A stretch of 18,670 nucleotides of DNA from an uncultured Clostridia bacterium (GTDB taxonomy: Bacteria; Bacillota; Clostridia; TANB77; CAG-465), in assembly GCA_944383035.1 (NCBI GenBank), contig CALWOE010000025.1, forward strand, positions 1 to 18,670, in the 5' to 3' direction. The position numbers were made by a program, and so were the translations under genes. How positions within the stretch are numbered: position 1 is the first letter of the stretch; every line of letters starts with the position of its first letter. A model generated the notes under the pieces. That model was not told the origin of the DNA. It saw only the letters and a program-made list of their open reading frames with translations, and ran no database searches. Below are positions 2,773 to 14,847 of this stretch, in pieces.

Positions 2773-3591
2773 ATGGAGATTATATTGTTTTTTCTAAAGG
2801 ATGTTTTTTTACCTATAATTATTACTGTTATAACTCTTTTACTTGGAATTTTGATAGATTACAAAAAAAATAAACCAGTAATTCTTGTATCTCATGATGA
2901 ACATGGAAAAAATTTAAAAATAGATTTAAATAGTAAAATAAGTTATTTAGATGGATTTTTTTATGATAAGAGAAAATATAATGAAGAATTAGTAAACTTT
3001 TTAAAAAAGAAAAAATATTATATATTTTTCAACTTACCAAATTTATTGGATGATTTGGTTATATATTTTAGAAATAAAGATGTTAAAACTAATAGTTTAA
3101 ATTTTTATAGTGCAAATAAATATTTAGTTAAAGATATACTAGTAAAATTTAAAAATGATGAAGATTTTCTTGAAATATTAAAAAAATATGAGACGTACAA
3201 AGATAATTCAAAATGGTTAATAAAATTTACTAATATTGGAAAAAGTGAAGCATATGATTTTAAAATAGTTGAACTAGTTGAAAATAAAGGTAATAGTGTA
3301 ATTTATACCAAAACTTTAAATAAAGGAGATAGTTATAATTTAATTTTATATTATTTTGATAAATCTATAAGAGTAAATACATTCAATTATTCATATAAAA
3401 GTAAATTTGAGTTTGGTTATTCAAAAACTGAAAAAATAGAATTTTATCTTATAAATAAAAAAAGATATAACAAAAAAGACGAAAAATTGTTTATAGTAGA
3501 ATATAAAGATTCCAACGCAAGAAAAAAAGAATATTATTTTTGTGCAAAAAATATAAAGCAAAAAGAATTAAATAAAAAAAATTACAAATAA
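2773..3591 (+). CDS. Hypothetical membrane-anchored protein, 272 aa
   Basis: SD agagga upstream. N-terminal hydrophobic helix (FLPIIITVITLLLGILI) followed by a Lys/Asn/Tyr-rich soluble region. No recognisable motif. Confidence 0.65.
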   Translation: MEIILFFLKDVFLPIIITVITLLLGILIDYKKNKPVILVSHDEHGKNLKIDLNSKISYLDGFFYDKRKYNEELVNFLKKKKYYIFFNLPNLLDDLVIYFRNKDVKTNSLNFYSANKYLVKDILVKFKNDEDFLEILKKYETYKDNSKWLIKFTNIGKSEAYDFKIVELVENKGNSVIYTKTLNKGDSYNLILYYFDKSIRVNTFNYSYKSKFEFGYSKTEKIEFYLINKKRYNKKDEKLFIVEYKDSNARKKEYYFCAKNIKQKELNKKNYK

Positions 3592-3598
3592 TAATTGT

Positions 3599-3946
3599 AT
3601 GATATATGTAGTTAGTTTTTTAGTAGGAATTTTAAATGGACTTTTTGCAAGTGGAGCTGGACAATTTTTAGTTTTTTATTTAATTTATATTTTAAAGACG
3701 GAAACACATAAAGCAAGAGCTCTTAGTGTTTCCGTTTTATCTATATCAAGTATTATATCAATTATAGGATATAAAAATTATACCAATGTAAATTACTTAT
3801 ATCTTTTAATAATATTTTTTATAGCTATAATATCTTCATATCTTGGAACTAAAATAATGAAAAATTTAAGAGCAGAAATAATAAATTTGATATCTGGAAT
3901 TTTAATAGTAAGTCTTACAATAATAAGATTTTTCTTAGGAGGTTAA
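3599..3946 (+). CDS. Half-size (about 4-TM) TSUP / TauE-SafE family membrane protein
   Basis: 115 aa, almost entirely hydrophobic. Gly-rich first-helix motif GLFASGAGQFLVF resembles the TSUP GxGGG motif. No obvious SD. Confidence 0.65.
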   Translation: MIYVVSFLVGILNGLFASGAGQFLVFYLIYILKTETHKARALSVSVLSISSIISIIGYKNYTNVNYLYLLIIFFIAIISSYLGTKIMKNLRAEIINLISGILIVSLTIIRFFLGG

Positions 3947-3947
3947 T

Positions 3948-4352
3948 ATGATTTTTAAATTTGTAATTATAGCATTTGTAAGCTCAGTAATTGCAAGTAT
4001 GGGAATTGGTGGAGGTTCAATATTTATACTACTTTCATCACTTTTTAATCTTTTTCCATATAAAGAAGTAAAATTCTATAATTTATTTATGTTTATAATA
4101 ACAGGTTTTATAGCAACTATTTTTAACATAAAAAACAAAAAAGTAAATTTAAAAGAAATTATAAAAATAGTATTACCAGTTATTTTTGGTAGTATGTTTG
4201 GGATTTTTTTATTAAAATTTATTGATGATAATATATTAAGAAGTATTTTCTATATAATAATAATGTTTTTTGGAATATATGAAATAATTTCAAGTTTAAT
4301 TAAAATAAAAAATGCAAAAGATAATAAAAAAAGAAAGGAGGCGTTATTATGA
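3948..4352 (+). CDS. Half-size (about 4-TM) TSUP / TauE-SafE family membrane protein
   Basis: 134 aa with the motif SMGIGGGSIFILL typical of TSUP repeat units. A strong SD aggagg lies inside the end of the preceding gene, and the ATG is 1 nt after its stop. Confidence 0.7.
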   Translation: MIFKFVIIAFVSSVIASMGIGGGSIFILLSSLFNLFPYKEVKFYNLFMFIITGFIATIFNIKNKKVNLKEIIKIVLPVIFGSMFGIFLLKFIDDNILRSIFYIIIMFFGIYEIISSLIKIKNAKDNKKRKEALL

Positions 4353-7771: not shown

Positions 7772-7795
7772 TGTAAAAGCTATTTATTATTTTTT
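7764..7795. terminator. Hairpin shared by the convergent ends of pflA and cca (possible bidirectional terminator)
   Basis: Perfect 8-bp stem ataaatag (7764-7771) / ctatttat (7780-7787), 8-nt loop. T-run on the + strand (7788-7795) and a T-rich tract on the - strand. The arms overlap both stop codons. Confidence 0.45.
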
Positions 7796-8973
7796 GTTAA
7801 TAAATCAATATATTCAGCTTGTTTTTTATAAAGAATATCTAAAAATTTTTTATATCCAATTTTATTTGAATATATCCCGTTATCATTTAAAGTTTTTCCA
7901 TTTATTTTAGTAAATATACTTATTGATAAATTTAATAACTCAAAATTTTTTTTTAAAGATTTTGGAATTTCAAAAAATTTAAAATATATATTTAAAATTA
8001 TTTCAAAATTTTGTATTCCAATATGTGATTTTTTTAATTTATTTAATAAAATAATTTTTTCGTAATTACTAAGATTATTAAAATTTATAGCTTTATCTAA
8101 ATAGTTAGATATATCTTGGCTATATAAAATATATTTTTTTGGTAAATTAAGCCTTTTGCAAAGATTAATAATAGAAATATCATTTATATTTAAAAGATAA
8201 GTACCTAATGAGAGTATTGAAAATATAACTGAGTCATCTTTTGTATATTTTACAATTTCATCTAATGATTTCATTAAGTTATTAAATAATGTTTTATTTT
8301 GTTTAAACAAAAAATTTAATTCAAAAAAATGAATATCTAAAATATCTGAGTTAATTAAGCAATGAAAAAAATTAGATGGATGATCTGTTTTTAAAGCTTT
8401 TTTTAATTCTTCAAATATTCTTTCATTTTTTAAATATTTAATTTCATCTTTTAATTTACTCATTAATTTTATAGTTTCAACATCTACTTTAAAATTATAT
8501 TTAGCACTAAATCTAGCAACTCTATAAACACGTAAACCATCTTCACAAAAACTATTAGATATATGCCTTATTATATGATTTTTTATATCTTCTATACCAT
8601 TGAAAGGATCAATTATATCATTAGTAATTACATCTTTTGCTATTGCATTTATTGTTATATCACGTCTTTTTAAATCGTCATATATTGTAATTTCTTTTGA
8701 AGTATCAAAATTAAAACCTTTATGACCGGTTTTAATTTTTGTTTCTTTTCTTGCAAGTGCACACTCATATGAATTTATAATGTATACAGGAAAGCTACTA
8801 CCTACTTTTTTTACATCTTTAAATAAGTTGTAAAGATCATTTTCATCAAGACCAGTTATGCAAAAATCTAGGTCTTCAGATTTAATATTCATGATTTCAT
8901 CACGTATAGCTCCTCCAACTAAATATAATCTTCCACCGGCATCATTTATTTTTTTTGCCATTTGATTTATCAT
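7780..8973 (-). CDS. cca: CCA-adding tRNA nucleotidyltransferase
   Basis: 397 aa. Class II nucleotidyltransferase head motifs LVGGAIRD...DLDF, RRDITINA, EDGLRVYRVARF and ERIFEELKK. Confidence 0.88.
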   Translation of the reverse strand: MINQMAKKINDAGGRLYLVGGAIRDEIMNIKSEDLDFCITGLDENDLYNLFKDVKKVGSSFPVYIINSYECALARKETKIKTGHKGFNFDTSKEITIYDDLKRRDITINAIAKDVITNDIIDPFNGIEDIKNHIIRHISNSFCEDGLRVYRVARFSAKYNFKVDVETIKLMSKLKDEIKYLKNERIFEELKKALKTDHPSNFFHCLINSDILDIHFFELNFLFKQNKTLFNNLMKSLDEIVKYTKDDSVIFSILSLGTYLLNINDISIINLCKRLNLPKKYILYSQDISNYLDKAINFNNLSNYEKIILLNKLKKSHIGIQNFEIILNIYFKFFEIPKSLKKNFELLNLSISIFTKINGKTLNDNGIYSNKIGYKKFLDILYKKQAEYIDLLTKNNK

Positions 8974-8988
8974 AAAATCACCATTTTT

Positions 8989-9017
8989 ATTATATAATAT
9001 TTAGAAATTAATAGCAA
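8989..9017 (-). promoter_or_regulatory. Putative sigma-A promoter of cca
   Basis: On the - strand: TTGCTA (9017-9012), 17-nt spacer, TATAAT (8994-8989). Divergent from the promoter at 9053. Confidence 0.5.
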
Positions 9018-9052
9018 ATTTTACAAAATTAACAAAAAATTATCATATTTAC

Positions 9053-9081
9053 TTGACAAAAATCATATAATATGGTATATA
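9053..9081 (+). promoter_or_regulatory. Sigma-A promoter with extended -10, driving the leader of the 93-aa gene
   Basis: Consensus TTGACA (9053-9058), 17-nt spacer ending in TGg, then TATATA (9076-9081). Confidence 0.65.
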
Positions 9082-9087
9082 TACTAT

Positions 9088-9209
9088 ATCGAGAGTGCAT
9101 ATAAGTTTAAAAAAATGAGCTATGCAGCCTATGATTAGGTACACTAGTATGAATATCTTCATACAAGGAGTCTTGGTATAAGACTTTTTGTATGAGGATA
9201 TTTTTTTTT
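9088..9209 (+). promoter_or_regulatory. Structured 5' leader ending in an intrinsic terminator (unclassified riboswitch or attenuator candidate)
   Basis: 18-bp terminator stem 9157-9174 / 9180-9197 (3 G-U pairs, loop ggtat) followed by ata plus T9 (9201-9209). A competing 7-bp hairpin gtatgaa / ttcatac (9147-9164) overlaps the terminator 5' arm. No credible promoter lies between the terminator and the ATG at 9267. Confidence 0.6.
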
Positions 9210-9266
9210 CAAAATAAAATTTTATTTTAGAATATCCCAAAATATAATTATAGGAGGAGATTATTT

Positions 9267-9548
9267 ATGTCTAAAGATTATGTCTTTTTTTCATTTGTTG
9301 GTAAAGCTTATAACGTTTTGAAAAATATAAATGGTGTAAAGATTTTATCATATGAAGATGAAGAAGGTGAAATGGAAAATGAAAATTCATATGTTTTAGA
9401 AATTACTTCTAATATGGATTATCCTAAGATTCTTAGACAAATTGTTGAGAGTACTCAAAATATGGGTATTAATTTGACAAAAATGTATTTTTTAGATGAA
9501 AAAGCTGTAACTGAAGTTATGGCTTTTTCTATTTTTGGTATTAGTTAA
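9267..9548 (+). CDS. Hypothetical small acidic protein, 93 aa
   Basis: Strong SD aggagg (9252-9257) and an ORF with Glu-rich centre (EDEEGEMENEN). No recognisable motif. Confidence 0.6.
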   Translation: MSKDYVFFSFVGKAYNVLKNINGVKILSYEDEEGEMENENSYVLEITSNMDYPKILRQIVESTQNMGINLTKMYFLDEKAVTEVMAFSIFGIS

Positions 9549-9572
9549 AAATGAATAAATTTAGTTCAAAAT

Positions 9573-9595
9573 AAAGTTTACTTAACTTTTTTTTT
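9573..9595 (+). terminator. Weak putative terminator after the 93-aa gene
   Basis: 6-bp A/T-rich stem aaagtt / aacttt (loop tactt) running into a T-run ending at 9595. The weak stem makes this call tentative. Confidence 0.3.
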
Positions 9596-9602
9596 ATTTT
9601 CC

Positions 9603-9631
9603 TTGATATTTATATTAATTTATAGTAAAAT
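9603..9631 (+). promoter_or_regulatory. Putative sigma-A promoter for the 9681..12957 gene set (possibly extending through 14051)
   Basis: TTGATA (9603-9608), 17-nt spacer, TAAAAT (9626-9631). Confidence 0.5.
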
Positions 9632-9680
9632 TATATTATGGAATTAAATATAAAAATGAAAAAGATGTGAGGGAATAGTT

Positions 9681-10004
9681 ATGGTTTATAAGAAAATAAC
9701 TTTAGTTGCTATAATGTTAGCTATAATTGCAGCTGTTGTTTCAAGCTTTACATTTGGTGCAACTGATACATTAACAAACGATAAAATAATTGATTCAACA
9801 TTACAAATATTAATATTACTTCAAAAATATTCTTGGCCAATAATAACTTTTGTATTTATATATGCTTTGTATCAATATTATGTTGCTGGTTCAGAAGTTA
9901 TAGAGCAAAAGATTTTAGGTCAAAGATTGATAGTTGGAATAGCAATATTTATGGTAATTTTACAATGTATGCCACTTGTTTATGCATTTTTAATAGTAAA
10001 TTAA
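9681..10004 (+). CDS. Small membrane protein, 107 aa: signal-peptide-like N-terminus plus two TM helices (VirB2/TrbC-like topology)
   Basis: SD gaggg upstream. N-terminal KK plus hydrophobic stretch ending FTFGA. Two further hydrophobic helices (WPIITFVFIYALYQYYV and LIVGIAIFMVILQCMPLVYAFLIV) are separated by a short polar/basic loop. Confidence 0.7.
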   Translation: MVYKKITLVAIMLAIIAAVVSSFTFGATDTLTNDKIIDSTLQILILLQKYSWPIITFVFIYALYQYYVAGSEVIEQKILGQRLIVGIAIFMVILQCMPLVYAFLIVN

Positions 10005-10034
10005 CAAATGATAAGTAATAGGAGAGATTAAATT

Positions 10035-11858
10035 ATGAAGGTACTTTTTGGAATTAATAATGATAATACAGTAAAGGATATAGTTGAATTTTATCAAGAT
10101 AGATATAAAGAAAAAATTGAATATAAAAATGTTTATTATTTTAAACAATTTATTCAAGAGTTATCAGCAAATAAATATGATAGGGCAGTAATGTTAGAAG
10201 AACTTGAAAAGTTTCCAACTAATAATTATGCACAAATTGATGATTATTTATTTAAAAATATTGATAGTATGACTGATGTGTTTGATGCAAAAGATATTAT
10301 ATATATAGCATCTGATAGAAGAAAACTTGGAGATGAATTTTTATCTAAGTTATTTAATCTTGGTATATATACAGTGCTTACAGACCAAAATAGAACAAAA
10401 GGAAAAGTTTGCGAAGGAATACATGCACCATATCTAAAGAAAGATGTAAAAAAATATTATGATAATGTTGTTGGAGAAAATGTATATAAATCAGGAGAGG
10501 TTTCTGAAATAGAAATTCAAAGAATTATATCATATTATAAAAATCAAAATGGTGTTGCAGATAAATATAATGAAATATTTGATAGAATTGCTACTCAATA
10601 TACAAACGAGCAATTAAAAGTAATTATTAATTTTTTACCTGCAGATGTAAAACAACATTTGGCTTTTAATAATGAAAAATATAAAGCATTAATGAATACA
10701 GTAAATCCAACAGTACAACCTACACCAGGTGTAAATAATGTGGCACAACAAACAGGAAATGAAAAGCAATCTCAACCGCAACCTCAACAATCACAACAAG
10801 TTCAAAAAACACAGCATATAATTGATAATAACAAAGATGTTAGCAATCGTGTTGAAGTAAAAAAAGAACCTCAAATAGTTGAGAAAATTGTAGTTCAACA
10901 GGTTGAAAAACCAGCATCTGTTGTAACACAAGTAGTTGAAAAAGAAGTTGTAAGATCTGTTTATGAAGTACCAAAAGATTATAAAAAAGTTGTATGTTTT
11001 GTTGGAGCTCCAAAAGTTGGAACAACGTTTTGTATAAATGCAGTTGCTACATTTTTAGCTAGAAATAAAGTAAAAACTGCAATTGTGGATGTAACAAGAA
11101 AAAGAGATACATATACAATATATACATATGATAATGAAGGAAAAAGAAATATTGCAGCACAAAGTATGAAATATGCTTCAAGTGGTATGAATGAACCATT
11201 AATATATGATAAATTAAGTATTTATACAGGAATGCCAGGTGAAGATAGAAAAACATATAATGCAAATGTTGCAATAGAAACAATAATGGCAAATAATAAT
11301 GTTATACTAATAGATTCTGATTTTACTACACCAACAGATTTCTTTAGATTATGTCAAGAAATTTATTTGGTACAAGACATGGATATTTTAAATATAAATC
11401 AAGTAACTATGTTTTTAAGAGAATTAAAATCTAGAGGTATACCACTTAGCAAATTAAGAGTAATAATTAATAAACATGTCAAATGTGCATTAACATCTAG
11501 AGATATATTAGATGGTATTGCTACATATACAAGTTATGACTTAAAAATGTATGATGAACTTTTAAATGTAAATCAGATTCCATATTTTATACTACCATTT
11601 GATGTAGAAAATTATACAAAATATGTTGAAATGGTGTATAAGTATTCTAATAAATTTGCTACATTTACAGATTTCTTTAAAGAAAACATTTTTAAAGTTA
11701 TAAATTCAATATATCCTGTTGCTGGTACTATGAAGGGAAGTTCTTCTTCTTACTCAGCACCTACTCAAAGAAAAAGTAGAATGTCTGGTATATTTAAGAA
11801 AACCCCAAGATATTCTAATACTACCACAACATCAGGATTTGAAAAAGAAGTAAAATAA
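10035..11858 (+). CDS. Pseudo-receiver / Q,P-rich linker / ParA-MinD-like domain protein with degenerate Walker A, 607 aa
   Basis: N-terminal ~140 aa has an alternating REC-like pattern (KVLFGINNDN...AVMLEELE...IIYIASD...GIYTVLT) without the Asp pocket or Lys. The linker is QPTPGVNNVAQQTGNEKQSQPQPQQSQQVQ. The C-terminal domain has VCFVGAPKVGTTF in place of the xKGGxGK[ST] motif, a Walker-B-like VILIDSD, and a MinD-like layout (LVQDMD..., RVIINKH). Confidence 0.75.
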   Translation: MKVLFGINNDNTVKDIVEFYQDRYKEKIEYKNVYYFKQFIQELSANKYDRAVMLEELEKFPTNNYAQIDDYLFKNIDSMTDVFDAKDIIYIASDRRKLGDEFLSKLFNLGIYTVLTDQNRTKGKVCEGIHAPYLKKDVKKYYDNVVGENVYKSGEVSEIEIQRIISYYKNQNGVADKYNEIFDRIATQYTNEQLKVIINFLPADVKQHLAFNNEKYKALMNTVNPTVQPTPGVNNVAQQTGNEKQSQPQPQQSQQVQKTQHIIDNNKDVSNRVEVKKEPQIVEKIVVQQVEKPASVVTQVVEKEVVRSVYEVPKDYKKVVCFVGAPKVGTTFCINAVATFLARNKVKTAIVDVTRKRDTYTIYTYDNEGKRNIAAQSMKYASSGMNEPLIYDKLSIYTGMPGEDRKTYNANVAIETIMANNNVILIDSDFTTPTDFFRLCQEIYLVQDMDILNINQVTMFLRELKSRGIPLSKLRVIINKHVKCALTSRDILDGIATYTSYDLKMYDELLNVNQIPYFILPFDVENYTKYVEMVYKYSNKFATFTDFFKENIFKVINSIYPVAGTMKGSSSSYSAPTQRKSRMSGIFKKTPRYSNTTTTSGFEKEVK

Positions 11859-11883
11859 CAAAAGATAAGAAAGGAAGAAATTT

Positions 11884-12957
11884 ATGTGGATACTTACAAT
11901 ATTGTTAGCTTTAGCATTGTTAGCGGCAATAGTATTTATTGTAATGATGGCAAACTCGTATAATAAAAACTTAAATTATTATATGCTTTTATCAAAAAAT
12001 GTATCTTCAATGAGTGCTGTTGAAAAAATGTTTGCTATAATGGGGAAAAATACAAGTGCAGAAGAAAAAATAGTACTTGCAAATAAAGTAATGTTAGAGT
12101 TATATTCTCCTAAATATTCTACTTTATCAATATATGATGGAAATACATATACTGCAAAAGCAACAAATGTTGAAAAGACATATATTGAAAGTGTAGCTAA
12201 TGTTGCAGAAGAAGTTGACTTTAAAGCTAATGCTAGTAAAAATGTTTCTAAGTATTTGACAACAACAGCAAATAAGACACTTACATATAAAAGTGCAATG
12301 GAAAGAAAAATAAAATCAGCAATGTTTTCACCAATATATTATAACAATACATATCTTGGATTTTGGTTATTAGAAGATACAAGAGAAGGAGCTTTTGATA
12401 ATATCCCAAAAGAAGAAATTCAAAAGCTAAAAAATAATCTTGGAATATTCTTAGAAAATATAGCTTTCCAAAATACTATAGAAATTGCTGAAAATACAGA
12501 TAAACAAACAACTTTCTATAATAATATGTATTTATATTCAAATATAAGACAAAAACTTATTGATAAAGATACAAGTGCTTTAACATTAATTTGTTTAGAT
12601 AACTTACCTGAAATAAATGAAAAGTACAATAGAAATTTAGGAAATGCACTTTTAATAAAAGCTGCAAATGCACTTAAAGAAATTGTAGGTAATGATTCGT
12701 TTTTAGTAAGATATAGTGGACTTAGATTTTTGGTTGTTACTCCTGATTGTAATGCAGGTGTTGTTCAACCTATGATGGATAGATATTTAACAAAATTAAA
12801 AAACGAAGTAGAGTATGTAAGTGATGAACCAGTTAATTTAAATGCACAAGTTGTTATACATACTTTTAGAAAGCAGAATAATATTGAAGTAGAAATAAGA
12901 AAAATGGTAAAACATATAGATAATATGAAACAAACAAATATAATACAAATTATATAA
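11884..12957 (+). CDS. Membrane-anchored sensor protein with a degenerate GGDEF domain, 357 aa
   Basis: N-terminal TM helix (WILTILLALALLAAIVFIVMM). The central region has a GAF-like pattern (SPIYYNNTYLGFWLLED...). The C-terminal GGDEF-like fold has LTLICLDNLPEINEKYNRNLGNALL (metal and substrate residues replaced) and RYSGLRFLV in place of RxGGDEF. Confidence 0.75.
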   Translation: MWILTILLALALLAAIVFIVMMANSYNKNLNYYMLLSKNVSSMSAVEKMFAIMGKNTSAEEKIVLANKVMLELYSPKYSTLSIYDGNTYTAKATNVEKTYIESVANVAEEVDFKANASKNVSKYLTTTANKTLTYKSAMERKIKSAMFSPIYYNNTYLGFWLLEDTREGAFDNIPKEEIQKLKNNLGIFLENIAFQNTIEIAENTDKQTTFYNNMYLYSNIRQKLIDKDTSALTLICLDNLPEINEKYNRNLGNALLIKAANALKEIVGNDSFLVRYSGLRFLVVTPDCNAGVVQPMMDRYLTKLKNEVEYVSDEPVNLNAQVVIHTFRKQNNIEVEIRKMVKHIDNMKQTNIIQII

Positions 12958-13007
12958 AGTACTAATATTAAATATTAGTAATATAATGTAAGAAAAGGAG
13001 TGATTTT

Positions 13008-13253
13008 ATGGATCAAAACACAACTGTTTTTACTCCACAAAAAGATGAATCAAAAAGAGTAAAAGAAATAATGGAACAAGTAGTTAGTGCATTAAAAGAT
13101 AAAGGTTATGAACCAATTAGTCAAATTATTGGATATATATTATCTGGTGACCCAACATATATAACATCTCATCAGAATGCAAGAGCTTTAATTTGCAAAA
13201 TAGAAAGAGATGATTTATTACAAGAAATGATTAAAAAATATTTGGATTTATAA
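13008..13253 (+). CDS. ireB: IreB-family regulatory phosphoprotein (UPF0297 / YrzL)
   Basis: 81 aa with the signature GYEPISQIIGYILSGDPTYITSHQNAR. SD aaaggag. Canonical position upstream of ruvX. Confidence 0.88.
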   Translation: MDQNTTVFTPQKDESKRVKEIMEQVVSALKDKGYEPISQIIGYILSGDPTYITSHQNARALICKIERDDLLQEMIKKYLDL

Positions 13254-13257
13254 TAAT

Positions 13258-13683
13258 ATGAAAAGAATTCTTGGTATAGATTATGGTGATGTAAGAGTGG
13301 GCCTAGCAATATCAGATCCACTTTTAATTACTGCTCAAGGACTAGATACTTTAGTTATCAATAATAGTGACAAAAACTTTTTGAAAAATATACGAAAAAT
13401 TATTAATGAATATGATATTGAAAAAGTTGTTATTGGTTATCCAAAAAATATGGATGGTACACCATCTAAAAAAACTGAAAAAATAGATATGCTTATACCT
13501 GAAATTGAAAAAATGAATGTACAAGTTATAAAATGGGATGAGCGTTTAACAACAGTTAGTGCATATAAAACAATGAGAGATTTAAATATTTCCCAAAAAA
13601 GTAAAAATAAGTATGCAGATAAATTTGCTGCTATATATATTTTAGAGGGATATTTAAATAGTATAAGAAATAAAGGAGGATAA
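13258..13683 (+). CDS. ruvX: Putative pre-16S rRNA nuclease / Holliday junction resolvase-like protein YqgF
   Basis: 141 aa with ILGIDYGDVRVGLAISD, VVIGYPKNMDGT and WDERLTT motifs of the YqgF/RuvX family. Confidence 0.92.
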   Translation: MKRILGIDYGDVRVGLAISDPLLITAQGLDTLVINNSDKNFLKNIRKIINEYDIEKVVIGYPKNMDGTPSKKTEKIDMLIPEIEKMNVQVIKWDERLTTVSAYKTMRDLNISQKSKNKYADKFAAIYILEGYLNSIRNKGG

Positions 13684-13685
13684 AA

Positions 13686-14051
13686 ATGGAAAATAACGAA
13701 AATGAAGAATTTTTATCATGTGGTACATCTTGTGAAACATGCCCAGGATGTGGACATCATCATGATGATGAATATCTTGATCATGAAGACGATAGAATAA
13801 TGATTCTTACAGATGAAGATGGTAACGATGTAAAATTTGAAAGATTAGATGTTATTGTTTTAGATGATAAAGAATATTTCATTATGGCAAAAATTGAAGA
13901 AGAAGAAAACGAAGATGAAGATTTTGAAGTAGTAATACTTGAATTAAAACAAGATGAAAATGGTGAAATGGTTTTAGATACAGTTACTGATGAAAAATTA
14001 GCAGAAAAAGTATTTAATGAATTTAAGGCAAGAAATGAAGATGAAGAATAG
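13686..14051 (+). CDS. DUF1292 (YrzB-like) protein with a Cys/His-rich N-terminal extension
   Basis: Core is ILTDEDGNDVKFERLDVIVLDDKEYFIM...VVILEL, typical of DUF1292, and the protein is acidic. The N-terminus carries CGTSCETCPGCGHHH. SD aaaggagg upstream. Confidence 0.85.
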   Translation: MENNENEEFLSCGTSCETCPGCGHHHDDEYLDHEDDRIMILTDEDGNDVKFERLDVIVLDDKEYFIMAKIEEEENEDEDFEVVILELKQDENGEMVLDTVTDEKLAEKVFNEFKARNEDEE

Positions 14052-14072
14052 CAAAAAGCTATTCTTTTTTTC
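14045..14072 (+). terminator. Intrinsic terminator after the DUF1292 gene
   Basis: Perfect 8-bp stem agaatagc (14045-14052, includes the TAG stop) / gctattct (14058-14065), loop aaaaa, then a T7 run. Confidence 0.75.
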
Positions 14073-14101
14073 TTGACTTTGATTTTAATAAATGGTAAAA
14101 T
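14073..14101 (+). promoter_or_regulatory. Sigma-A promoter with extended -10 for the 14152 orphan gene
   Basis: TTGACT (14073-14078), 17-nt spacer ending TGg, TAAAAT (14096-14101). Confidence 0.6.
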
Positions 14102-14151: not shown

Positions 14152-14847
14152 ATGAAAAATATACAGTTTTGCTCTTTTCAAGAAAATTTACCAAGTGTAA
14201 GTATTTTAGATTTTTTCTATAACACAGTATATATGAAAAATGATAACTTACTTGATAACTTTGATAAATTTACAATAAGTGATAATTATAACTTATATGT
14301 AAAATGGGAATTATTTTCAAAGAATGAAGAAAAGGAGTTTTATTATATTTGTCAATATTCATGCTATAAATATTTACGAGAGTTATATATATTATATACA
14401 AAGAGAAATGTTTTAGATATTGATAAATGTAATATAGGAATATATTATATTAAAAAATATGAACAGGAACCTTTAATTTATGAAAAAAAATTTTTTTATA
14501 GATTTAAAGATTTTTTAATAAAAAAAAGAGATTTATTAATAAAAAATTCAAAAAAAATTAATGATTTATTTGAAATGGATAATTATATAAATTCTTTGTA
14601 TATTGGAATAAATGAAAATTATGAAAAAACAGAATTAGATGATTATTCAATAGGATATTGTAAAAATTTAATTTTTATTAATTCCAAAAAAGATATTCCA
14701 TTTCAAAAAATAAATATATCTAATAATATTATTAATTTAGATTTAAGTGTAATTAAAAGTATTAAATATATTAGATATTTAAATGAAAATACATTATTTT
14801 TAGTAAGTAAAGGTACTGAAAAATATTTTTTAAAAATTATTTCTTAA
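14152..14847 (+). CDS. Hypothetical protein, 231 aa, stand-alone transcription unit
   Basis: GGAGG at 14141-14145, 6 nt before the ATG. Bracketed by its own promoter and terminator. Tyr/Lys/Asn-rich with no TM segment and no recognisable motif. Confidence 0.65.
   Translation: MKNIQFCSFQENLPSVSILDFFYNTVYMKNDNLLDNFDKFTISDNYNLYVKWELFSKNEEKEFYYICQYSCYKYLRELYILYTKRNVLDIDKCNIGIYYIKKYEQEPLIYEKKFFYRFKDFLIKKRDLLIKNSKKINDLFEMDNYINSLYIGINENYEKTELDDYSIGYCKNLIFINSKKDIPFQKINISNNIINLDLSVIKSIKYIRYLNENTLFLVSKGTEKYFLKIIS

Follow-up and report, generated by a model that had tools for sequence, protein, structure and literature searches.

An ireB-linked gene trio in uncultured Clostridia and its possible kinship with TadZ and MinD

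Between cca and ireB, an 18,670-nucleotide stretch of DNA from an uncultured Clostridia bacterium (contig CALWOE010000025.1; hereafter the window, with a G+C content of about 24%) carries four consecutive open reading frames (ORFs), here called O1 to O4, and the question is what they encode and whether they belong together. A first-pass annotation, made from the sequence alone, had described them as a single four-gene module with a 'dead' ParA/MinD protein and a 'dead' GGDEF protein; the four + strand ORFs lie exactly at the coordinates it had given, and the motifs GAPKVGTT in O3 and SGLRF in O4 are located where it had put them. We find that O2, O3 and O4 are conserved together far beyond chance, whereas O1 stands apart. 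Our reading, held tentatively and at slightly less than an even chance, is that O2, O3 and O4 open an operon, P(9603)-O2-O3-O4-ireB-ruvX-DUF1292, and encode a membrane-associated, hydrolysis-independent scaffold of the TadZ/MinD kind. The analysis shows the anatomy of the operon, its conservation, the folds, the state of the motifs and the Tad-linked homologues, whereas the scaffold's membrane binding, its lack of ATPase activity, the formation of a complex and its cargo are what we infer. The genes in question are as follows.

9267-9548, + strand: O1, an ORF of 93 amino acids (aa)
9681-10004, + strand: O2, an ORF of 107 aa, a small membrane protein
10035-11858, + strand: O3, an ORF of 607 aa, a putative TadZ/MinD-like pseudo-ATPase scaffold
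11884-12957, + strand: O4, an ORF of 357 aa, a membrane-anchored protein with a degenerate GGDEF domain
13008-13253, + strand: ireB (PF06135, E = 8e-36, and synteny)
13258-13683, + strand: ruvX (Pfam and synteny)
13686-14051, + strand: DUF1292 gene (Pfam and synteny)

A conserved unit shared with ireB, ruvX and a DUF1292 gene

Related loci were collected by scanning one genome per species, which gave 59 loci, all from assemblies of uncultured 'Clostridia bacterium' or of the 'Clostridium sp. CAG:465/921/1219' type, and all window proteins were compared with these loci by tblastn. The series O2-O3-O4-ireB-ruvX-DUF1292 has a common order and strand in about 55 of these 59 species-level genomes while what precedes O2 differs from genome to genome (pflA or a split TauE pair, for example), and we thus regard O2, O3 and O4 as a conserved unit of three genes. 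O2 lies directly upstream of O3 in 58 of the 59 loci by tblastn, and also, by inspection, in locus L058, where a diverged O2/O3 pair immediately precedes ireB. The O2-O3-O4-ireB arrangement recurs in distant metagenomic lineages (L060, L062, L067 and L076), and O2/O3 genes linked to ireB are found altogether in the window, the 59 genomes, and L060, L062, L063, L065, L066, L067 and L076. O4 accompanies the pair in about 55 of the 59 loci and in the distant L060, L062, L066, L067 and L076, and is absent in L025, L042, L044, L058, L063 and L065. The co-occurrence in relatives that the first-pass annotation had named as a criterion is therefore present for O2, O3 and O4, but not for O1.

The unit is framed by two predicted transcription signals.

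9603-9631, + strand: promoter of the O2-O3-O4(-ireB...) unit, TTGATA-17-TAAAAT within CTTGATATTT...TTATAGTAAAAT (10 of 12 matches in the scan)
14043-14075, + strand: first intrinsic terminator after O2, a hairpin with a T-run that overlaps the DUF1292 stop

The promoter-like block before O2, CTTG[AC]TATTT...TTATAGTAAAAT, is near-invariant among relatives: 52 of 58 have TAYAGTRMAAT 32-56 nucleotides (nt), and in one case 79 nt, 5' of the O2 ATG, and most of the distant ireB-linked loci examined retain TTGATATTT...TA(T)AGT. In the O2 upstream regions of L001-L059 (L058 included), L060, L062, L063 and L065 the core CTTGATATTT-N10-TTATAGTAAAAT is conserved far more strongly than a generic sigma-A promoter requires, and the block persists where the proteins are just 30-45% identical. 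Such conservation suggests contact with a dedicated regulator or sigma factor. At the other end, the gap between O4 and ireB measures 50 nt, as previously described, and the terminator scan reports nothing between 9529 and 14043. In relatives the spacer from O4, or from O3 if O4 is absent, to ireB is 11-99 nt long, in many cases below 35 nt, with no terminator visible. These short spacers and the lack of a terminator before 14043 make the read-through into ireB, ruvX and DUF1292 that had been proposed likely, so that the three are probably downstream genes of the O2-O3-O4 transcription unit.

The spacer between O4 and ireB has a feature of its own at 12960-12980, a perfect 9-bp AT-only palindrome, ACTAATATT-AAA-AATATTAGT, followed by TAATATAAT, which may act as a weak signal for processing or attenuation or as an internal -10 element. 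A hairpin conserved at this position was considered and rejected as a general feature; only 7 of 27 long spacers fold better than their shuffled versions, and their sequences differ.

O3, its partners and their Tad-linked homologues

At 90% clustering O3 has more than 3,700 homologues, and an exhaustive profile search of 1.84 billion representatives returned 477 matches, 327 of them at E <= 1e-10; with only 477 matches the family is closed and, sequence-wise, separate from the ParA/MinD superfamily. In its members, which are 550-1434 aa long, a linker of 80-900 aa separates two conserved parts, a region of about 225 aa at the N terminus and a domain of about 270 aa at the C terminus. Searches against Pfam, NCBIfam, PHROG and PADLOC gave nothing, even at E = 10 on isolated domains, and the Pfam models CbiA, ParA, AAA_31 and MipZ in particular matched neither the whole protein nor an isolated domain up to E = 10. 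Sequence searches of the PDB, with O3 alone or with a profile of its close family, returned nothing meaningful and did not match the TadZ structure 3fkq, and an N-domain profile found designed helical repeats only and no receiver.

The architecture of O3 was modelled with AlphaFold2 (AF2) from a diverse alignment of 140 sequences, which gave a mean predicted local distance difference test score (pLDDT) of 83, with both domains above 93 (an alignment of 45 close homologues gave 54). The elements of O3, and the degenerate motif of O4 that is discussed below, are listed here.

10035-10424, + strand: CheY-like (beta-alpha)5 pseudo-receiver, O3 residues 1-130, pLDDT 93-98
10437-10697, + strand: helical bundle, O3 residues 135-221, with F182, Q188 and Y189 conserved
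10704-10964, + strand: disordered linker rich in P, Q, E, K and V, O3 residues 224-310, pLDDT below 50
10986-11714, + strand: MinD/ParA-fold (SIMIBI) domain by Foldseek, O3 residues 318-560
11004-11027, + strand: deviant P-loop GAPKVGTT, O3 residues 324-331, with T330 at the Walker-A lysine position
11784-11801, + strand: SGIFKK, a candidate MinD-like amphipathic membrane-targeting peptide (putative function), O3 residues 584-589
12709-12729, + strand: RYSGLRF in place of RxGG[DE]EF, O4 residues 276-282

The C-terminal domain (pLDDT above 90) has the seven-stranded fold of the MinD/ParA-type P-loop nucleoside triphosphatases. In Foldseek searches of the PDB its closest matches are a ParA-family protein (3ea0, template-modelling (TM) score 0.72-0.73), MinD (4v02, 0.72; 3r9j, 0.71), FleN (0.71), 5j1j (0.71), FlhG (0.70) and BcsQ (0.64). 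The two-domain TadZ of Eubacterium rectale (3fkq) aligns to both O3 domains over 581 columns (E = 8e-6). The first-pass proposals of a MinD/ParA-like fold and of a pseudo-receiver are thus supported, the former by scores of about 0.72 to 3ea0 and 4v02 and the latter by a (beta-alpha)5 fold at pLDDT above 93. The receiver-like domain lacks the DD acidic pair and the lysine of true receivers; E55 and E58, which lie close to where strand 3 ends, do not vary. Judged from the models, O3 represents an undescribed family that combines a TadZ architecture and a MinD fold with a P-loop, linker features and partners of its own.

The P-loop was examined in 124 diverse C-domains of the family. G324 and G329 are conserved in all of them and K327, three residues before position 330, in 94%, while position 330 itself is occupied by T, V, I or N but in no case by K; the loop reads GxxKxG[TS][TS] throughout, GK[ST] occurs in no member, and the Walker A consensus KGGxxGK[ST] with its catalytic lysine is lacking in O3. 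The first switch-I Asp, D352, is kept in 100% and the Walker-B residues D427/D429 in 99-100%, and the second switch-I Asp is replaced by T354 in 97%. That T330 occupies the position of the catalytic lysine follows from two alignments that agree, a weak match of the diverse O3 profile to the P-loop of the Staphylococcus aureus bacterial tyrosine kinase CapB (GtsKnGts / EAPGAGKS) and a Clostridium botulinum homologue that has SDCSSGKS at the same site. The lysine reported as missing is thus missing across the family, while the word 'dead', in the sense of decay, does not hold: conservation and lysine alignments together indicate a fixed family character and signature, not a random lesion. O3 would be expected to have lost ATP hydrolysis.

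Two further features concern the linker and the tail. AT-hooks are found in the linker of 85 of 149 family representatives, usually exactly two and in one member six, with the consensus K-R-G-R-G-R-P-[RK]-K (KRGRGRPRK); the two of a pair are about 20 residues apart within a long acidic disordered linker, as in the representatives P0252 (residues 495-530) and P0301 (residues 615-650, from L060). All AT-hook members whose context was seen are linked to ireB (L060, L062 and L066), and most ireB-linked relatives carry two, but neither the window O3 nor any of its 120 close homologues has one. At the C terminus, GxFKK (G585, F587, K588 and K589) is part of the majority consensus of close O3 homologues, F587 being nearly invariant, and subfamilies near the window O3 end in MinD-like, basic-hydrophobic KKGLFG, RRGLFG or GLFKRR. 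The AT-hook subfamily (for example P0255, P0265 and P0341) ends instead in a conserved FSxxMNxTLxKM[KR]xxY, probably an amphipathic helix or a partner-binding peptide.

O2 has an N-terminal signal or transmembrane segment (residues 6-27) and a conserved C-terminal hairpin of two transmembrane segments (residues 52-69 and 83-106) with a Q-x-x-P motif. Homology of the hairpin (YS[IW]P...Q-x-x-P...) can be recognised in all contexts examined, including loci with genes of Tad-like pili, and the extracytoplasmic N-terminal extensions of the homologues vary. Pfam, NCBIfam, PHROGs and PADLOC assign O2 to no family. It had been called pilin-like, a description that stands for its topology, a signal peptide plus two transmembrane segments, and not for its sequence, which matches no TrbC/VirB2 profile and no type IV secretion system pilin profile (PF04956, PF18895); one homologue reached PF18895 at E = 0.25, far below the cut-off.

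O4 starts with a transmembrane segment (residues 2-22), followed by a cytoplasmic middle domain (about residues 45-195) that is conserved, with many invariant residues, and by a degenerate GGDEF domain (residues 204-346). No profile supported an assignment of the middle domain to GAF or PAS, and both were rejected. The GGDEF assignment, proposed earlier, is supported by Pfam (PF00990, E = 2.5e-14, above the cut-off), by TIGR00254 (38.7, with a cut-off of 37.4), by matches in all 37 family members, and by alignment of family and PDB profiles. When profiles are aligned to cyclases of known structure, GGEEF falls on SG[IL]R[LF], within a family consensus RYSGxR[LF], and the first metal-binding Asp of DxD aligns to C237 or to a variable residue. 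At the positions of the RxxD I-site (RESD in PleD) the window protein has GNDS, and the family consensus is SxxS. N245 is invariant and residue 246 mostly acidic, which may reflect a residual nucleotide pocket. On these alignments O4 cannot act as a cyclase, being without an active site and without a canonical site for cyclic di-GMP (c-di-GMP), and we correct the label 'diguanylate cyclase' that its homologues bear in databases. The divergence goes further in the distant L060, whose O4 homologue is recognised by hhalign at a probability of 99.95%, has the motif RYMGPKF and is no longer detected as GGDEF by Pfam.

Homologues of the O2/O3 pair also occur in Tad-like pilus loci (L061, L064, L073, L074/L075 and the C. 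botulinum plasmids, L072). The order in L061 is a 153-aa gene, an O2-like gene (239 aa, with a duplicated hairpin), an O3-like gene, CpaB (SAF), a MinD-like gene, a T2SSE ATPase, a T2SSF platform and short pilin-like genes, and L064, L073 and L074/L075 resemble it; in L064, too, the O2-like, O3-like and CpaB (SAF) genes are consecutive. In C. botulinum plasmids (NZ_KT897276 and relatives) a full-length O3 homologue of 546 aa lies directly upstream of an ATPase of the type II secretion system/type IV pilus (T2SS/T4P) family and of a 669-aa TadC-like platform, with an O2-like gene 7 kb upstream. The TadZ analogy drawn in the first-pass annotation thus has a real evolutionary basis, divergent O2/O3 genes lying inside Tad-like loci and 3fkq aligning to both domains, and these homologues indicate that O2 and O3 are an accessory pair of clostridial Tad-like systems. 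The C. botulinum homologue keeps the canonical lysine; in the gut clade the pair is found at ireB and the Walker lysine has been lost.

Two observations on these loci stand on their own. Without exception, the O2-like gene of Tad-linked loci follows a conserved gene of about 150 aa (L061, 303-764; L064, 70-522; L073, 7810-8220; L074, 7830-8225), which encodes one N-terminal transmembrane segment and a soluble domain and has no counterpart in the window. Furthermore, L072 (C. botulinum plasmid NZ_KT897276, 134 kb; record 19515-38204) contains an unannotated Tad-like cluster of a cultured pathogen. The cluster holds the O2-like gene of 241 aa, a giant protein of 1927 aa, the O3 homologue and genes of 281 and 277 aa, the latter with a P-loop-like motif, HGRGNTS; besides the T2SS/T4P ATPase and the 669-aa TadC-like platform there are a 137-aa pilin-like gene and a cell-wall hydrolase, and all but two of the genes are annotated 'hypothetical'.

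O1 and the surrounding genes

O1 had been taken for a member of the module, which is not borne out: it is specific to its species, and the conserved promoter lies between O1 and O2. Its own unit comprises the following features.

9053-9548, + strand: O1 unit, outside the conserved module, consisting of promoter, leader hairpin, O1 and 3' hairpin
9053-9081, + strand: O1 promoter, TTGACA-17-TGgTATATA, strong
about 9151-9203, + strand: leader terminator hairpin, perfect over 25 bp and followed by a T-run, fold z = -6.3 (reported as 9154-9200 by the terminator scan, which counts no more than 20 pairs)
9498-9538, + strand: second terminator-like hairpin, overlapping the O1 3' end

The promoter and the terminator hairpin with its T-run were found by scan and by folding. 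The leader is about 120 nt long, O1 has a good ribosome-binding site, and the leader could act as an attenuator or as an independent small RNA. No Rfam covariance model matched the leader at the gathering threshold, and permissive E-values brought up chance miRNA-like hairpins only, so that a riboswitch upstream of O1 was rejected. A leader common to O1 and to the regions upstream of O2 in relatives was likewise rejected, as the comparison gave AT-rich noise only. O1 has no relatives in the 59 related genomes (tblastn) and no match in Pfam, NCBIfam, PHROGs or PADLOC, and among 5.8 billion proteins it forms one 99%-identical cluster that is always in the same species-level context. O1 is a species-specific ORFan and a separate, lineage-specific unit.

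Pfam confirms the flanks as described, with cca (CCA/poly(A)-polymerase family, - strand) before the cluster, upstream of O1, and ireB, ruvX and DUF1292 after it. The cca gene is absent from all 59 related loci (tblastn); cca and O1 together occupy an inserted segment, 7780-9548, and several relatives (L002, L022 and L054) have pflA directly before O2. The statement that every flanking gene is recognisable housekeeping is overstated, since ORFs 338-1447, 2773-3591 and 14152-14847 (369, 272 and 231 aa) have no Pfam match. For the last of these tblastn gave nothing in any of the 59 related loci, and the stretch around it has 15-20% G+C. At 3599-4352 TauE/SafE is split between two neighbouring half-size genes, of which the first (115 aa) matches the C-terminal and the second (134 aa) the N-terminal half of the Pfam model, and such a pair also lies just upstream of O2 in many relatives.

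Possible roles and related systems

In the TadZ/MinD-kind scaffold that we favour, O3 would be the core, its pseudo-receiver and helical bundle providing protein-protein contacts, as in TadZ, and its flexible linker connecting these contact domains to the MinD/ParA-fold domain. Since Thr replaces the Walker-A lysine while the Walker-B residues and the first switch-I Asp stay, O3 would be a static or ligand-gated hub and not a cycling ATPase. It would be held at the membrane through its C-terminal MinD-like amphipathic peptide, through the O2 loop or through both, O2 contributing the short basic cytoplasmic loop of its two-transmembrane hairpin. O4 would be an optional third subunit with a single transmembrane anchor, its void GGDEF fold and middle domain serving as adaptor or input. 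The O2/O3 pair would derive from accessory components of the Tad-like (type IVc) pilus clusters of clostridia and have been moved beside ireB in this gut clade, and the whole probably positions or stabilises an envelope machine. That machine would be either a putative Tad-like pilus of the clade, with its genes at another site, or a complex of the cell wall or of division. The Tad-linked homologues speak for such a pilus, whereas a role at the chromosome, the membrane or the division site is suggested by the AT-hooks, the MinD-like tail and the linkage to ireB.

Several points weigh against this scaffold. As already noted in the first-pass annotation, the window has no pilus ATPase, platform or synthase gene (T2SSE, T2SSF and synthase were sought with Pfam); no Tad ATPase or platform gene lies in its 18.7 kb or within 6-10 kb in ireB-linked loci, so that a pilus role would have to act in trans. 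The Tad-linked loci already hold a separate MinD-like (TadZ-like) gene, and O3 is thus not simply TadZ. Two canonical AT-hooks, in 57% of O3 representatives, point to DNA binding, which is no property of TadZ, and O4 is missing in several lineages.

An alternative is a chromosome-membrane or division-site system, in which O3 would bind the membrane and, in most orthologues through AT-hooks, DNA as well, and would, with O2 and O4, tether or survey the nucleoid by a Noc- or MinD-like logic, co-expression with IreB coupling it to peptidoglycan synthesis and division. The two KRGRGRPRK hooks in 85 of 149 representatives, linked to ireB in all contexts seen, speak for it together with the MinD-like tails of the family, the place of MinD among the best structural matches and the strict linkage to ireB-ruvX-DUF1292. 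We nevertheless consider it somewhat unlikely, as AT-hooks are lacking in the window O3 and in each of its 120 close homologues, the missing Walker lysine makes an ATP-driven membrane cycle of the MinD type improbable, no minC, minE or ftsZ-related partner is nearby, and the linkage to ireB is possibly just positional. A bolder variant, which we rate as rather unlikely, makes O2-O3-O4 an unrecognised hydrolysis-independent MinD-like system that bridges membrane (O2, O4 and the tail) and chromosome (the paired AT-hooks of most orthologues) and is co-expressed with IreB. IreB is a substrate of PASTA kinases and a regulator of cell-wall synthesis. If true, such a bridge would let gut Clostridia with reduced genomes coordinate the position of the nucleoid with division and peptidoglycan synthesis, and would be a new spatial organiser evolved from a Tad-pilus accessory pair.

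A second-messenger receptor module like BcsE/BcsQ/BcsR/BcsF, the other role proposed at the outset, would have O4 sense c-di-GMP or GTP and signal to O3, which would control a machine for secretion or exopolysaccharide. The GGDEF fold of O4, the invariant N245 and the usually acidic residue 246, which match part of the base-binding pocket, the BcsQ match of O3 (TM score 0.64, with BcsE-BcsRQ complexes among the Foldseek matches) and the adjoining small membrane protein are consistent with it. It is very unlikely all the same, and the receptor reading is not supported: the I-site RxxD has become SxxS or GxxS, GG[DE]EF and the first metal-binding Asp are lost, the distant L060 has RYMGPKF in a domain that Pfam does not detect as GGDEF, several lineages dispense with O4, and no locus has synthase or exopolysaccharide genes. 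That the genes are a chance juxtaposition, a remnant of a mobile element or decaying genes without joint function has a nearly negligible probability. O1 and cca do form a lineage-specific insertion beside the cluster, and homologues do occur on C. botulinum plasmids, but the genes keep their order, strand and spacing in 59 species and in further lineages at 26-43% protein identity, O2, O3 and O4 each have invariant residues, and the promoter is conserved. A phage origin was rejected, no phage match being found, and the loci examined show no integrase or repeat signatures.

Whichever envelope machine the scaffold would serve, the O3 family is sequence-wise without a relative in Pfam, NCBIfam or the PDB, yet conserved in many abundant uncultured gut Clostridia, in an operon with IreB. 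It extends the TadZ/MinD theme, in which ATPase folds are reused as non-catalytic positioning hubs, and adds to it a shortened P-loop whose lysine has been relocated, together with AT-hooks in pairs and membrane partners of its own.

Among known systems, the comparison for O4 is with S. aureus GdpS, Bacillus subtilis YdaK and Escherichia coli BcsE, membrane-associated GGDEF folds without cyclase activity that act as adaptors or receptors. O4 resembles the NCBIfam GdpS model (E = 1.3e-5) without reaching a curated cut-off, and differs from all three in its single transmembrane segment and novel middle domain; it also lacks the RxxD I-site that YdaK uses. The analogy to Bcs that had been drawn is not supported, as no glycosyltransferase or synthase gene, such as would mark a bcsA/bcsB synthase operon, is found with Pfam in the window or related loci and BcsQ is structurally a weaker match than MinD. 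MinD itself, with FlhG/FleN and orphan ParA, gives the best structural matches of the O3 C-domain (0.70-0.72), and O3 shares with it the Walker-B and first switch-I Asp and a tail that resembles the MinD membrane-targeting sequence. O3, on the other hand, lacks KGGxxGK[ST], has Thr for the catalytic lysine and DxT for the switch-I DxD, and has no MinC or MinE partners nearby.

TadZ combines an atypical receiver domain, used for protein interactions, with an atypical ParA/MinD-like domain (bioRxiv 10.64898/2026.07.08.737194). O3, like TadZ/CpaE, has a receiver-like N-domain and a ParA/MinD-fold C-domain with a non-canonical Walker A, but it has a helical bundle in addition, and a long linker that is disordered and often bears AT-hooks; its P-loop, GxxKxGT[ST], is shorter, and in the window it adjoins ireB and not tadA. 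Its C-domain profile shows no detectable similarity to the TadZ-like protein of L061 (hhalign probability 27% local, 42% global). By Pfam, T2SSE, T2SSF and SAF genes are found neither in the window nor in any ireB-linked locus, and a tad context is seen for divergent homologues only (L061, L064, L072 and L073-L075). The C. botulinum homologue in such a context is WP_172688024.1 of plasmid pINGR16-02E1 (NZ_KT897276), annotated as a hypothetical protein; no other relative from a cultured organism was found. It is homologous to O3 over its full length and shares its architecture (N-domain hidden Markov model (HMM) E = 1.6e-38, C-domain HMM E = 5.7e-15), and it ends in a MinD-like LNKFFGRRK, but its Walker A is a canonical SGKS and it alone reaches Pfam CbiA (E = 1.3e-7).

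A Tad-like pilus cluster with CpaB, a TadZ-like protein (231 aa), a CpaE-like protein (280 aa), TadA and a TadC-TadB fusion has been described as conserved in the uncultured order TANB77, where the pilus is linked to the response to immunotherapy; CAG-492 species are named as lacking it (PMC11680825). The published genes, 927-938, do not include O2, O3 or O4 (PMC11680825), but the organisms are of a similar type, low-GC uncultured gut Clostridia with names of the form 'Clostridium sp. CAG:...', and the gene set closely resembles that beside the C. botulinum O3 homologue. If the clade studied here is TANB77, the O2-O3-O4 module would be a candidate regulator or localiser of its Tad-like pilus.

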